Shown here: positions 18,122 through 21,611 of the stretch, piece after piece | Layout of the letters: every line of letters begins with the position of its first letter | Position numbering within the stretch: position 1 is the stretch's first letter | Translations under genes and position numbers: made by a program | Origin: an uncultured Acidimicrobiia bacterium | Lineage (GTDB): Bacteria; Actinomycetota; Acidimicrobiia; Spongiisociales; UBA11373 | Direction of reading: 5' to 3' | Assembly (NCBI GenBank): GCA_964511945.1 | Contig: CAZEHO010000002.1 | Span: 18,175 to 82,174 of the forward strand | DNA: 64,000 nucleotides | Notes under the pieces: generated by a model | Seen by the model: only the letters and a program-made list of their open reading frames with translations | What the model was told of the DNA's origin: nothing | Database searches by the model: none

Positions 18122-18996
18122 GCGAACGAAGAGCTCGCAAGCGCGGCGCATCGGAACTCCGCCGGACGATCAAGCGTGCGATCCAGGAGGGACGGAGTGG
18201 CCGGGCCGGGTCCGCGGAACTCGGAGAGACAATTCAGCGAGCGATCGCGGCCCAAATGGTACGGAAGTTCCGTGAGCGGCCCGAGGTGGCGCGGAAGCTC
18301 GTCGAGGCCGGCCTCATCGACGAGGACTACGCGAACGTCGATCCGGCCACCATCGAGGATCCGGTGCGGTTCCTTCGCGAGTTCGGATCGGCGCTCGCCG
18401 AACGGGTCCGGGAGCAGCCCTCCACGCTCGCCCGGCTCGACCTGAACGCCGTGGAACTGATGGGCCAGGATTCGATCGGGACCACCCAGGCGGTCGCCGA
18501 ATCGACCCGGGACGATCGGGTGGTCCTGTTCACCGATCTCGAAGGGTTCACGTCCTTCACCGAGGACGAGGGTGATACGGCGGCAACCGAGCTGCTGACC
18601 GGGCACTACCAGGTGGTACAGGGCGTCGTTCGGTCTCGCGGCGGTGAGGTCGTGAAGCGCCTCGGCGACGGCCACCTCCTCGCGTTCCGGGCACCGGAGG
18701 CGGCGGTGATGGCAGGGCTCGAGATCGTCGAGTTGGCTCCCGATCCGTTGCGGCTGCGAGCGGGCGCGCACGCCGGCGAGGTGATGGTCTCCTCAGACGA
18801 CCTGCTCGGTCATGTGGTGAACATCGCTTCACGGGTTGCCGGTTCGGCGGGGGGCGGCCAGGCACTGATCACCGGAGCGGTGCGCCGGGATGCGGCCGAG
18901 CTGGCCGGTATCGAGTACGTGTCGACGCCGCCGCGGCCGCTCCGGGGGCTCGATGAACCGATGGCCCTCTGGGAGGTTCACCGGGTTCCGCGGTAG
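18118..18996 (+). CDS. class III adenylate/guanylate cyclase domain protein
   Basis: ATG at 18118 overlaps the ATPase stop (ATGA). C-terminal CHD domain: VVLFTDLEGFTSFTE...KRLGDGHLLAF...GAHAGEVMV...GHVVNIASRV. Confidence 0.8.
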   Translation: MSERRARKRGASELRRTIKRAIQEGRSGRAGSAELGETIQRAIAAQMVRKFRERPEVARKLVEAGLIDEDYANVDPATIEDPVRFLREFGSALAERVREQPSTLARLDLNAVELMGQDSIGTTQAVAESTRDDRVVLFTDLEGFTSFTEDEGDTAATELLTGHYQVVQGVVRSRGGEVVKRLGDGHLLAFRAPEAAVMAGLEIVELAPDPLRLRAGAHAGEVMVSSDDLLGHVVNIASRVAGSAGGGQALITGAVRRDAAELAGIEYVSTPPRPLRGLDEPMALWEVHRVPR

Positions 18997-19310
18997 GCCC
19001 TCACCTGCACTCGCTCGGTCGTCACCAGCCCGTCACCGACCATCTCGTCGAGTTCCGGGAGTACGGCCTCGATTTGCTCCTCGCGATCGACACACTCGAT
19101 CACGATCGGCAGGTCCTCAGAGAGCCGCACGATCGACGAGGTATGGAGCCTGGTCGATTGGCCGTACCCCTCGATCCCCTTGAGCACGGTCGCCCCGGCG
19201 AGGTCGTGGCTCCGTAACAGTTCGACAATCGCCTGGAACAGCGGCCGGCCCTCGAAACGATCGTCCTCGCCGATGAAGATGCGGAGCAGCAGATGGGCGG
19301 GGTCATTCAT
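18978..19310 (-). CDS. DUF190 (PII-like) protein, fluoride-operon associated
   Basis: MNDPAHLLLRIFIGEDDRFEGRPLFQAIVELL...ATVLKGIEGYG is the DUF190 family. Sits downstream of the crcB pair. Confidence 0.8.
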   Translation of the reverse strand: MNDPAHLLLRIFIGEDDRFEGRPLFQAIVELLRSHDLAGATVLKGIEGYGQSTRLHTSSIVRLSEDLPIVIECVDREEQIEAVLPELDEMVGDGLVTTERVQVRAYRGTR

Positions 19311-19314
19311 GAGC

Positions 19315-19662
19315 TCAGTCTGTCAGGTGGAACCCCAGCGCGCACAGGGCGACACCTGCAACGAGCGGCAACACCACATTGACCAGTGCCCGCCGGTGCT
19401 GGCCGGTCAAGAGGAGCCCGAAGCTCTCAAAGCTCCATGTCGAGAACGTCGTGAACCCACCGAGAAACCCGACGACCCCGGCGGCCGGGATGCCGCCGTC
19501 CGGCAGGGCCCCCGCCGCCAGCCCGATCGCCAGAGCACCGAGGAGATTGACGGCCAGGGTGCCGCCGGGGAAGTGGCCGCTGCGGGCCTGAACCCACCCT
19601 GCGGCCAGGTACCGGCCGACCGCTCCCAGGCCGCCCGCCGCGATGGTGATGGTCGTGATCAT
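19315..19662 (-). CDS. crcB: fluoride ion channel CrcB/FluC, second copy
   Basis: 115 aa with FLGGFTTFSTWSFE signature. ATG at 19662 inside the long ORF 19315..20310. Overlaps the upstream crcB by ATGA. Confidence 0.85.
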   Translation of the reverse strand: MITTITIAAGGLGAVGRYLAAGWVQARSGHFPGGTLAVNLLGALAIGLAAGALPDGGIPAAGVVGFLGGFTTFSTWSFESFGLLLTGQHRRALVNVVLPLVAGVALCALGFHLTD

Positions 19663-20057
19663 CGGCGCTCCCCGACGGCATGGCCCGCCCATGCTCCGAG
19701 GAGGCCGAGGATCGTGGATCCCGCGCCGTACCCGATGGCCGACGCGGCACGCCCCGCTTCCAGCAGTTGAACGGTCTCGAGGGCAAGGGCGGAGAACGTA
19801 GTGAACGATCCGAGCAATCCGATGGCCCAGAAGTCGAGTGATCGGGCCGATGAGCGGCTGATCTCCCGACGCGTCAGGTAGAAAGCCGCCGCCGTCGCTC
19901 CGGTGATGTTGACGAGCAGTGTGGCGGCGGGCCATCCGGCAGGGTCCCAGGAGATCCAGGCTCCCGCCGCGGTGCGCAGCGCCGATCCTAGGAGCCCGCC
20001 GGCCAGGATGACGGCAAGGCGTTGTGTGGAACGAAGGTCGATGGAGATCGCAAACAT
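19659..20057 (-). CDS. crcB: fluoride ion channel CrcB/FluC, first copy
   Basis: 132 aa, GLLGSFTTFSALALE signature. Directly preceded by a fluoride riboswitch. Confidence 0.85.
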   Translation of the reverse strand: MFAISIDLRSTQRLAVILAGGLLGSALRTAAGAWISWDPAGWPAATLLVNITGATAAAFYLTRREISRSSARSLDFWAIGLLGSFTTFSALALETVQLLEAGRAASAIGYGAGSTILGLLGAWAGHAVGERR

Positions 20058-20069
20058 GGCTCGGTTGGG

Positions 20070-20121
20070 GGGTAGGAGCCATCAGCCCGGGCGGGCGGTT
20101 TCGGCGAGCTCCATCGCCGTC
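20070..20121 (-). ncRNA. fluoride riboswitch (crcB RNA motif)
   Basis: Minus-strand sequence GGCGAUGGAGCUCGCCGAAACCGCCCGCCCGGGCUGAUGGCUCCUAC aligns almost position by position with the Thermotoga fluoride riboswitch (GGCGAUGAGGCCCGCCCAAACUGCCCUGAAAAGGGCUGAUGGCCUCUAC). It ends 14 nt before the crcB ATG. Confidence 0.8.
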
Positions 20122-20243
20122 GGCGTGATCGTACCGGACCCGCCACCGCAGCAGCGGGAGGGCTCCAGGGGTCGGTTCCGATCTTCGGGGTTGATCAAGG
20201 CAGCGGTCGTGGAAGAATCCCCAATGATGCTGACACAGGAGGG

Positions 20244-20762
20244 GTGATGACACGAAGCCATGTTTCATGGCGCGGAGCGGCTGTGCTCCTGGTGGCGGTG
20301 TTCGCCACACTGCTGACCGCTTGCTCTGAGGAGACGCCTGCAGCCGAGATCGTCGACGACCGTCCCGAGGTGGCCCGCGCCGACCTCAGCGGCATCGAGG
20401 TCGAGGTCCATCGGGAGCCCGGCTGAGGATGCTGTGGTGATTGGTCTGATTACATCGCAGACCACGGTGCAACGGTCGTTGCATCCGACGATCCGCAACT
20501 GAACAGTTTCCGGGAGGGCCTCGGGGTCCCACCGGAGGTCTTCTCGTGCCACACCGCCATCGTCGACGGCTATGTGGTCGAAGGGCACGTGCCCGCCGAG
20601 GCCGTCGTCCAGCTCCTTGCGGAGCGGCCGGACGCCGTCGGCATCGCGGTTCCGGGCATGCCGGCGCTGTCTCCCGGCATGGGCGGGGACCGCGGGGATT
20701 GGCTCGACCTCGATGTCGTCCTGATCGGGTTCGACGGGAGCCTGTCACCTTTCCAGTTCTGA
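20244..20762 (+). CDS. DUF411/CopG-family periplasmic lipoprotein interrupted by an in-frame TGA at the first Cys of the CxCC motif (selenocysteine candidate or pseudogene)
   Basis: The ORF track splits this into 20244..20426 (signal peptide plus lipobox LLTAC) and 20574..20762. Hand translation shows one continuous frame: ...EVHREPG-TGA-GCCGDWSDYIADHG...SCHTAIVDGYVVEGHVPAE...GIAVPGMPALSPGMGG. That covers the DUF411 motifs CxCC-W, SCHTA, EGHVP and GMPxxSPGM. No in-frame ATG/GTG/TTG lies between the TGA (20424-26) and 20571. A 7-bp hairpin TGGTCTG-N9-CAGACCA begins 15 nt after the TGA. Confidence 0.55.
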
Positions 20763-20780
20763 GAAACCGGGAATGTCCTA

Positions 20781-20826
20781 CCCCTGGGTCGATGTTTAGT
20801 ACTAAAGTATGACATCGACTCAGGGG
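20781..20826 (+). promoter_or_regulatory. AT-rich palindromic hairpin overlapping the heliorhodopsin RBS
   Basis: CCCCTGGGTCGATGT-TTAGTACTAAAGTATG-ACATCGACTCAGGGG has ~14-bp arms with one mismatch. Its loop carries the perfect palindrome TTAGTACTAA. The 3' arm contains the GGGGAAG Shine-Dalgarno for the ATG at 20832. Confidence 0.4.
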
Positions 20827-20831
20827 AAGAC

Positions 20832-21611
20832 ATGACCACCGTGACCGCTGAGACTGCCGTGCCGATGGTTCGGCTCCGCCGGCTCAACCTCATCGTTGGG
20901 CTGGCCCATCTGATTCAGGGGGTCCTGATCCTGGTACTGAGCAGCGGGTTCTCGATCCCGGTGCTCGCTTCGTTCGCCGACGGACCTCCGGGGACGCCTC
21001 CGCCACCAGCATCCATCCTGTTCGAGATGCCGTTTGCGGTGGTGATCGCGATCTTCTTGCTCTTCGCCGCAGCCGACCACCTGCTCATGGCGTTTGGTGG
21101 GGTCCGCCGCTGGTACGAGAGCAACCTGCGCAGGACCGTCAACTACGCCCGCTGGATCGAATACTCGATCAGCTCGTCTCTGATGGTCGTGCTGATCGCC
21201 ATGCTCACCGGCATCGTCGATTTTTTCGCCCTGCTCGGATTATTCGGGGTGAACGCCTCGATGATCCTGTTCGGGGCGCTCCAGGAGCGGTTCAATCAGC
21301 TCGACAAGGACAATGTCGATTGGTGGCCGTTCATCTTCGGAACCATCGCCGGGAGCGTCCCGTGGATCGCAGTGGCGTTCTCCATCGGTGGAGCAGTGCA
21401 GGAGGGCAACGGCGTTCCCGGCTTCGTGTTCGGAATCTTCGTGTCCCTGTTCATCTTCTTCAACAGCTTCGCCATCAACCAGGTGCTGCAGTACCGCCGG
21501 GTGGGGAAGTGGCGGGACTATCTGTACGGCGAGCGGGCCTACATCCTGCTCAGCCTCGGGGCCAAGACCGCGTTGGCCTGGCAGGTGTTCGGCGGAACGC
21601 TGGCCGGCTGA
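20832..21611 (+). CDS. heliorhodopsin
   Basis: 259 aa, 7 TM. Block-wise identity to heliorhodopsin 48C12: NLIVGLAHLIQ, DGPPGT, RWIEYSISSSLMVVLIA, LLGLFGVNASMILFGALQERF, PGFVFGIFVSLFIFFNSFAINQVLQY..KW.DYLYGERAYILLSLGAKTALAWQVFGGTL. The retinal Schiff-base Lys (in SLGAKTALAWQ), the counterion Glu (in RWIEY) and the conserved His are present. Confidence 0.9.
   Translation: MTTVTAETAVPMVRLRRLNLIVGLAHLIQGVLILVLSSGFSIPVLASFADGPPGTPPPPASILFEMPFAVVIAIFLLFAAADHLLMAFGGVRRWYESNLRRTVNYARWIEYSISSSLMVVLIAMLTGIVDFFALLGLFGVNASMILFGALQERFNQLDKDNVDWWPFIFGTIAGSVPWIAVAFSIGGAVQEGNGVPGFVFGIFVSLFIFFNSFAINQVLQYRRVGKWRDYLYGERAYILLSLGAKTALAWQVFGGTLAG

Follow-up and report, generated by a model that had tools for sequence, protein, structure and literature searches.

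What does a TGA codon mean when it stands in frame at the first cysteine of a conserved CxCC motif? The question is raised by a gene for a DUF411/CopG lipoprotein on the forward strand of contig CAZEHO010000002.1, from an uncultured Acidimicrobiia bacterium, of which a stretch of 64,000 nucleotides (64 kb), here called the window, was analyzed. An earlier sequence-only reading had proposed that the gene encodes either a selenocysteine (Sec)-containing CopG or a recent nonsense pseudogene. Comparative evidence favors Sec: with a probability that we put at roughly 85%, the TGA is the Sec codon of a CopG/DUF411 lipoprotein and not the mark of a broken gene. This reading was adopted because the TGA recurs in at least 70 orthologues, homologues carry cysteine (Cys) at the site, the sequence is coding-like on both sides of the codon, and a downstream hairpin covaries in the group of relatives to which the window belongs (clade A).

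Reading frame and family of the interrupted gene

Positions 20244 to 20762 on the forward strand form one frame, in which the sole internal stop is the TGA at 20424 to 20426. The two open reading frames (ORFs) of the sequence-only reading are thus a single frame split only by this codon, as had been claimed. The likely start is the ATG at 20247, behind a Shine-Dalgarno-like AGGAGG at 20237 to 20242 that was read from the sequence and presumably functions as such; a GTG at 20244 is an alternative start. From the ATG, the gene of the proposed selenoprotein runs from 20247 to 20762 and encodes 171 amino acids, counting the residue proposed at the TGA (Sec60), up to the true stop, a TGA at 20760 to 20762. 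Its hydrophobic N terminus has the form of a signal peptide (20247 to 20324) with the lipobox L-T-A-C at its end, and the cysteine of that lipobox, Cys26 (20322 to 20324), is the predicted lipidation site and is invariant in our alignment A1. We infer that the protein is exported and lipidated at this residue.

When the TGA is translated as Cys, the read-through product has a Pfam match to PF04214 (DUF411) with an E value of 3.8e-25 and 87.8 bits, against a cutoff of 27, and it matches the solved Pseudomonas CopG structure 6WIS with an E value of 4.9e-26 over 103 residues (query 50 to 152). The product is therefore a full-length CopG/DUF411 protein, as had been suggested. The segment HREPG-U-GCCGDW aligns onto HRDAN-C-GCCKDW of 6WIS, placing the TGA on the first Cys of CxCC, and the U-G-C-C motif (20424 to 20435; readable also as UxxC, Sec60 to Cys63) aligns column for column with the CGCC of 6WIS and of the Cys homologues, which confirms the position that had been assigned to the codon. 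Since the first position of the motif is a TGA, CxCC is complete only if the UGA is read as Sec or Cys. Two further DUF411 features lie downstream, an S-C-H-T motif (20544 to 20555; Cys101 and His102) that is aligned to 6WIS and a P-G-M-P-x-x-S-P-G-M-G-G segment (20652 to 20687) with the conserved Met138 and Met145. S100, C101, H102, T103, M138, and M145 are invariant in A1 and are all found in the window protein, which keeps every one of the 38 invariant residues of the alignment.

Translation might nevertheless truly stop at the TGA, giving a 59-amino-acid lipopeptide with a downstream domain that is untranslated or reinitiated. Public gene calls agree with this, splitting every TGA form examined into an ORF of 53 to 62 amino acids followed by one of 102 to 104. 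However, the first ATG, GTG, or TTG past the internal TGA is the GTG at 20574, 49 codons on and beyond the SCHT motif, which bears out the claim that no alternative start precedes the core of the conserved domain. A separately initiated product would therefore be without most of that domain, losing the CC pair, W66, Y69, and the SCHT motif, and such a C-terminal piece would possess neither a signal peptide nor the metal-binding motif. Moreover, the stretch from the TGA to the called starts shows strong conservation of its amino acids (G-C-C-x-x-W-x-x-Y). True termination here is, in our judgment, exceedingly improbable.

The TGA codon among relatives

A protein search with the read-through sequence gave 3257 relatives, and among the best 120 of these, 35 are only 102 to 108 amino acids long and start just after the CxCCxxW motif. 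Seven truncated clusters, with proteins of 102 to 104 amino acids, were traced to DNA (P0014, P0021, P0023, P0026, P0027, P0028, and P0068), and all seven have TGA at the first-Cys codon, 21 to 27 nucleotides (nt) upstream of the called ORF and in the same frame. In the four clusters examined in full, the TGA is preceded by an in-frame ORF of 53 to 62 amino acids with a signal peptide and lipobox. A pattern scan of metagenomes for G-U-G-C-C-x-x-W-x-x-Y, with U encoded by TGA, yielded at least 120 matches, at least 51 of which pass a strict DUF411 motif filter; roughly 10 others were recognized as DUF411 on inspection. Among the matches listed in a scan of the genome collection, Cys forms predominated and the window's own genome was absent. 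The collection came to at least 70 distinct TGA forms, plus 73 Cys forms, and a lipobox-like motif is found in the upstream in-frame ORF of 58 of 70 TGA forms. At least three phyla are represented. The named genomes include Ilumatobacteraceae, Acidimicrobiaceae, and further Acidimicrobiia and Actinomycetota, along with one species of Chloroflexota, "Ca. Fredericiella danica," and two complete chromosomes of Vicinamibacterales (Acidobacteriota).

A set of 79 DUF411 genes from species-representative genomes was chosen by similarity of the C-terminal domain and is hence unbiased for this codon. In it, the codon is TGC in 57 genes, TGT in 13, and TGA in 9, with no TAA, TAG, or codon for another amino acid. 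Homologues with Cys at the site of the TGA make up the classical Sec/Cys pair. The sequence-only reading had proposed that orthologous genes be aligned; the 79 genes show nothing except TGA, TGC, or TGT at this codon, and conserved hairpins follow the TGA in the window's clade.

Is the sequence downstream of the TGA still under selection as protein? Pairwise differences at the first, second, and third codon positions are 0.40, 0.36, and 0.61 over the 15 codons upstream of the TGA and 0.33, 0.33, and 0.56 over the 30 codons downstream. Divergence is highest at third positions on both sides, which indicates purifying selection in this frame before and after the TGA. A reassigned genetic code is excluded, since TGA is also the true terminator in 44 of 67 TGA-form genes. 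A conserved TGA flanked in this way by coding sequence is the usual comparative hallmark of a selenoprotein gene, and neither a pseudogene nor an error can explain the family as a whole.

In the window, the TGA could still have arisen by nonsense mutation, through a fault in sequencing or assembly, or as a strain polymorphism of TGC or TGT, leaving either a pseudogene or a real Cys, and the codon is indeed one base away from both Cys codons. Against this, the ten further sequences in the window's clade all carry TGA here, as do all six of the genome loci closest to the window, and every family-invariant residue downstream of the TGA is kept. Because the TGA is shared in this way and no invariant residue has been lost, we consider a lesion or error in the window very unlikely.

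The motif itself shows some variation. Two Actinomycetota TGA forms (L021:6173 and L024:7352) have U-S-C-C (TGA AGC TGC TGC) in place of U-G-C-C, which means that the second motif position is not fixed.

Stem-loops after the UGA and the decoding question

If the UGA is decoded as Sec, a selenocysteine insertion sequence (SECIS) would be expected nearby in the mRNA. RNA positions are counted here with the U of the UGA as 1. The candidate on the forward strand of the window is a hairpin, H1, at 20442 to 20464 (nt 19 to 41), whose 7-bp stem of TGGTCTG and CAGACCA (20442 to 20448 with 20458 to 20464) encloses a 9-nt loop and begins 15 nt past the TGA. This 7-bp hairpin had been described before; it is present in the sequence, and relatives in the window's clade share it, with one pair that covaries. 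A second conserved hairpin, H2, follows at 20466 to 20485 on the same strand (nt 43 to 62). It reads GGUGCAAC-GGUC-GUUGCAUC, and its tetraloop (20474 to 20477) has what we take to be the loop sequence of the Escherichia coli fdhF SECIS. H1 is a conserved SECIS candidate, but with H2 behind it H1 is only part of the picture: H2 may either belong to the same SECIS or stand in for H1, and the functional element could be H1, H2, or both.

Clade A comprises 11 distinct sequences, in which the protein continues W-[S/A]-x-Y-...-D-H-G-A-T-V-V-A. Unguided RNAalifold analysis of this clade yielded both H1 (18/19 to 24 with 36 to 41/42) and H2 (45 to 50 with 55 to 60, loop GGUC), and H2 in the window has two further pairs beyond this core. 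Across H1 and H2, 86.7% of alignment cells are paired, versus 31 to 68% when the partners are slid, and the covariation score of 0.167, compared with 0.085 in shuffles, was reached by none of 500 shuffles. Both members of the H1 pair 24-36 are wobble positions, and the pair is found as G-C, C-G, G-U, and, in the window, U-A. The H2 pair 48-57 is A-U only in the window and G-C in the other sequences; the two substitutions behind this difference, G48A and C57U, are synonymous and compensate for each other. The window further has U45-A60 in H2. Six or more of the seven H1 pairs can be formed in 9 of 11 clade A Sec forms, versus 2 of 73 Cys forms; all six H2 pairs, from 45-60 to 50-55, can be formed in 7 of 11 (the window included), versus 0 of 73. 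Both hairpins are missing even from the closest Cys relatives, L224 and L225. The window has kept both hairpins of its clade through compensatory synonymous changes (G48A with C57U; U24-A36), which a dead gene would not do, and this argues further against a nonsense mutation or error there.

In the main clade, clade B, with 49 sequences, the protein continues W-V-[V/G]-Y-L. A 6-bp hairpin at +18 to +34 (18 to 23 with 29 to 34), with the loop C-G-K-G-U at +24 to +28, is intact in 46 of the 49. Because this stem is mostly fixed by the amino acids, synonymous sites were tested. The Leu codon whose third base is the partner of U19 reads CUG in 31 sequences, CUA in 16, and CUC in 2, while elsewhere in these genes CUC occurs 155 times, CUG 150 times, and CUA 10 times. 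The preference for a third-position purine is significant (P = 2e-10), as is that for CUA (33% versus 2.5% elsewhere; P = 9e-11). Likewise, the Val codon that provides loop base C24 is GUC in 48 of 49 sequences, versus 49% elsewhere (P = 6e-13), and pair 18-34 is G-C in 46 sequences and C-G in 2. Judging from these comparisons, both large clades appear to have a Sec-specific, selectively maintained stem-loop 14 to 15 nt after the UGA, with a sequence and register that differ between them. A 10-bp hairpin seen in L001 was considered as a feature of the family and rejected, as it is not conserved in clade B.

One Cys form, L226:345-854 (TGC), is nearly identical in this region to clade B TGA forms and has the complete clade B hairpin, with 6 of 6 pairs. 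It looks like a recent switch from Sec to Cys, or the reverse. Among low-GC TGA forms (43 to 50% GC: L105, L123, L129, L130, L143, L197, L205, and L213), some have a GGUUUCA-AGAC-UGAAACU stem-loop at +41 to +58.

Several observations weigh against decoding as Sec in the window. The low-GC group, clade C, shows no clear shared hairpin. The fold of 20420 to 20500 alone is not unusual (z = -0.37), so that support for H1 comes only from the comparison with relatives. In a synonymous-codon shuffle test of folding energy over nt 13 to 69, the window scored z = -0.77, and the mean z was +0.16 for Sec forms versus -0.17 for Cys forms; Sec forms are therefore not more structured, and only five clade A members reached about -1.7 to -2.4. 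Given that there was no overall difference between Sec and Cys forms, this energy was dropped as a general criterion. Rfam gave no SECIS match in the whole window at gathering thresholds or around the gene at E values up to 10. The usual bacterial SECIS range is 16 to 37 nt, and while H1 has the usual spacing, the GGUC loop of H2 is farther from the UGA, at about 48 nt. No independent read or second contig covers the window's own TGA in its lineage (L219 overlaps only the 3' end of the gene), and no copper genes adjoin the DUF411 gene in the window. Finally, a search of the 64-kb window and of approximately 2 Mb of flanks of related loci turned up no tRNA-Sec, selA, selB, or selD. The lack of a second contig and of observed Sec machinery is also compatible with a lesion or error in the window.

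How much weight does the last of these points bear? Across the window and all 219 locus sequences (2.0 Mb), ARAGORN predicted 22 tRNAs, of which none is a tRNA-Sec and only tRNA-Gln and tRNA-Leu lie in the window. Rfam likewise gave no tRNA-Sec in the window at gathering thresholds or around the gene at E values up to 10. The only tblastn matches to E. coli SelA, SelB, and SelD anywhere in the window or the loci were two weak GTPase hits, in Cys-form Nitrosomonas loci. Genes for Sec synthesis and insertion are single copy and need not be near a selenoprotein gene, so that their absence from the window and flanks carries no information on whether the host has them. According to a 2026 preprint (bioRxiv 10.64898/2026.04.03.716425), selA, selB, selC, and selD occur in every one of the 84 complete genomes of Actinomarina, from another order of Acidimicrobiia (Actinomarinales). 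Use of Sec is thus plausible in this class. A second selenoprotein candidate, a CMD/AhpD-like gene beside the DUF411 gene in L009, was rejected: it had looked split, but its two halves are neighboring genes that share a frame, and a CxxU motif is absent. Nothing convincing emerged from a search for other in-frame TGAs in Cys-type motifs over 0.5 Mb of TGA-form loci or from one for TGA-interrupted coding frames elsewhere in the window.

The evidence that the UGA is translated is also compatible with recoding to something other than Sec. A tRNA-Sec-like tRNA with a UCA anticodon, together with a SelB-like factor, could insert Cys, or near-cognate read-through could insert Trp or Cys; either would give a full-length protein free of selenium. 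A Cys-decoding system with a tRNA-Sec-like tRNA has been described in some Actinobacteria, the same hairpins would serve a SelB-like factor, and the lack of selA and selD in the sequences searched fits as well. Yet Cys-recoding systems are, so far as is known, rare and lineage restricted, while the TGA forms span three phyla, and reading UGA as Cys would bring no benefit over a plain TGC. The site alternates only between Cys codons and TGA in the 79 genes. It is also the N-terminal UxxC/CxCC position of a thioredoxin fold, a classical site for Sec in many predicted selenoprotein families (table in PMC13188914). We therefore regard recoding without selenium as unlikely, and decoding of the UGA as Sec is the reading followed below.

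Gene neighborhoods, proposed mechanism, and known systems

In the window, a heliorhodopsin gene (PF18761, E = 3e-96) lies directly downstream of the DUF411 gene at 20832 to 21611 on the same strand, as had been pointed out. The added interest attached to this adjacency did not hold up, since no heliorhodopsin gene stands beside DUF411 in the other approximately 225 loci, and a functional link between the two was rejected for this reason. Between the DUF411 stop and the heliorhodopsin start, at 20769 to 20840, is a hairpin of unusual stability (dG of -41.2 kcal/mol, z = -6.7, with 0 of 200 shuffles as stable) that has a stem of about 16 bp, CCCCUGGGUCGAUGUU with GACAUCGACUCAGGGG. The outer stem, AUGUC with GACAU, takes in the heliorhodopsin AUG (20832) and its purine-rich leader. 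This hairpin could occlude the ribosome-binding site, serve as a palindromic operator, or act as a terminator without a U-tract; Rfam gave only spurious microRNA matches there. On the other side, and divergent from the DUF411 gene, is an operon on the reverse strand (18978 to 20127), consisting of a fluoride riboswitch (RF01734; 20066 to 20127; 53.9 bits) followed by two tandem crcB genes (19659 to 20057 and 19315 to 19680) and a DUF190 gene (18978 to 19310).

Contextual support for a copper function is found only among relatives, some of whose TGA-form genes are linked to genes of copper homeostasis. Those of loci L003 to L008 adjoin genes for an ArsR-type regulator, a P-type ATPase, DUF3703, and SCO1/SenC, and that of L001 adjoins an ArsR-type regulator, a P-type ATPase, CopC/CopD, and DUF305; one TGA form adjoins FeoAB. 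In L003 to L008, the order is operon-like, with the regulator, ATPase, DUF3703, and SCO1/SenC genes followed by the TGA-form DUF411 gene (e.g., L003:661-4482). Genes with DsrE and rhodanese domains come next on the opposite strand; both families have known Sec forms, and the copies here apparently have Cys. In L223 (108 to 3563), a clade A TGA form lies just downstream of two large ORFs (342 and 749 amino acids) with weak or faint matches to multiheme cytochromes c, which may point to a redox setting outside the cytoplasm of that organism.

CopG itself, as a review of bacterial copper homeostasis describes it, is a thioredoxin-like protein of the periplasm whose CxCC motif and two Met residues hold a tetranuclear copper cluster; it contributes to copper resistance and has been proposed to oxidize Cu(I) and to transfer copper to cuproproteins (PMC7558416). 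In light of this homology, the best account of the window protein is an exported lipoprotein that probably handles copper and in which Sec would replace the reactive first Cys. Sec insertion, dependence on SelB, export, copper binding, and an advantage of Sec over Cys are what we infer, and they would fit together as follows. The UGA at 20424 to 20426 would be read by Sec-tRNA(Sec) delivered by SelB, which would be recruited by the mRNA stem-loop H1 (+19 to +41), possibly with H2 and its GGUC loop (+43 to +62); translation would end at the TGA at 20760 to 20762, which has no such element downstream. After export and lipidation at Cys26, the UxCC motif and the two Met residues, judging from the homologous CopG of Pseudomonas, would bind a multinuclear copper cluster, convert Cu(I) and Cu(II) outside the cytoplasm, or both. 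Compared with sulfur, selenium in this position would be the softer ligand, with greater nucleophilicity and better tolerance of oxidation.

A more far-reaching version of this proposal is that Sec is itself a bridging or terminal ligand of the multinuclear copper cluster. There would then be a natural Cu-Se cluster in an exported lipoprotein, belonging to an uncatalogued selenoprotein family widespread in uncultured Acidimicrobiia and present also in Chloroflexota and Acidobacteriota, with perhaps a two-hairpin SECIS in the window's clade. We offer this version tentatively, rating its chances a little below even. Were it true, the switch between Sec and Cys would point to the first Cys of CxCC as the residue that carries the chemistry of CopG.

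Has such a protein been described? A 2026 review tabulates 119 prokaryotic selenoprotein families and subfamilies with domain identifiers (PMC13188914), and PF04214, DUF411, CopG, and UxCC are not in that table. In NCBIfam release 20, which includes many selenoprotein models, no model matches the window protein. The earlier impression that no Sec member of the CopG family had been described thus agrees with both inventories. We found no publication joining DUF411 and selenoproteins, in a search that did not cover supplementary survey tables or databases such as BSepDB. The genes probably represent a new selenoprotein family, the Sec form of a known copper protein. If so, a widespread family that is now systematically misannotated as two short ORFs would be added to the bacterial selenoproteome, and use of Sec would be indicated in many uncultured Acidimicrobiia of freshwater, soil, and marine environments. 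The mechanism of CopG, as a copper-cluster carrier or a Cu(I)/Cu(II) oxidoreductase, is unsettled; a natural replacement of Cys by Sec would mark the first CxCC residue as reactive, and Sec and Cys forms of the family could be paired for experiments. The hairpins, which differ between clades, add to the material from which bacterial SECIS models can be built for high-GC Gram-positive lineages, in which the present ones fail.

The window protein shares with Pseudomonas aeruginosa CopG (6WIS and 6WJE) the domain, the positions of CxCC, SCHT, and the two PGM Met residues, and a predicted signal peptide and extracytoplasmic location. It differs in having UGA for the first Cys of CxCC and in being a predicted lipoprotein from Actinomycetota, which are of Gram-positive type, whereas CopG is soluble in the periplasm. 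In the window, its gene is not beside copA, cus, or cueO. In the UxxC selenoproteins of the thioredoxin fold (thioredoxin, glutaredoxin, DsbA-like, and thiol:disulfide interchange proteins), as proposed here, Sec is the N-terminal residue of a CxxC-type motif where helix 1 begins; Cys homologues are common, and some families are exported (PMC13188914). Here, in contrast, the motif is UxCC, in which the extra Cys corresponds to a cluster ligand in CopG, and the likely substrate is copper rather than a disulfide. A Sec that replaces a metal-ligand Cys has predicted precedents in proteins of copper or heavy-metal homeostasis, namely the SO_0444 Cu/Zn efflux transporter (UxC), a cation-transporting P-type ATPase (UxxC), and CopZ-like 2Fe-2S, MerT-like, and YHS proteins (PMC13188914), but these belong to unrelated folds and families, and none is a CopG-type multinuclear copper-cluster protein. 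As for the RNA, the E. coli fdhF-type SECIS resembles the elements proposed here in being a stem-loop within the coding sequence soon after the UGA (14 nt in clade B; 15 nt for H1), whereas the present hairpins have no Rfam match, vary in register and sequence by clade, and in clade A come as two adjacent hairpins.

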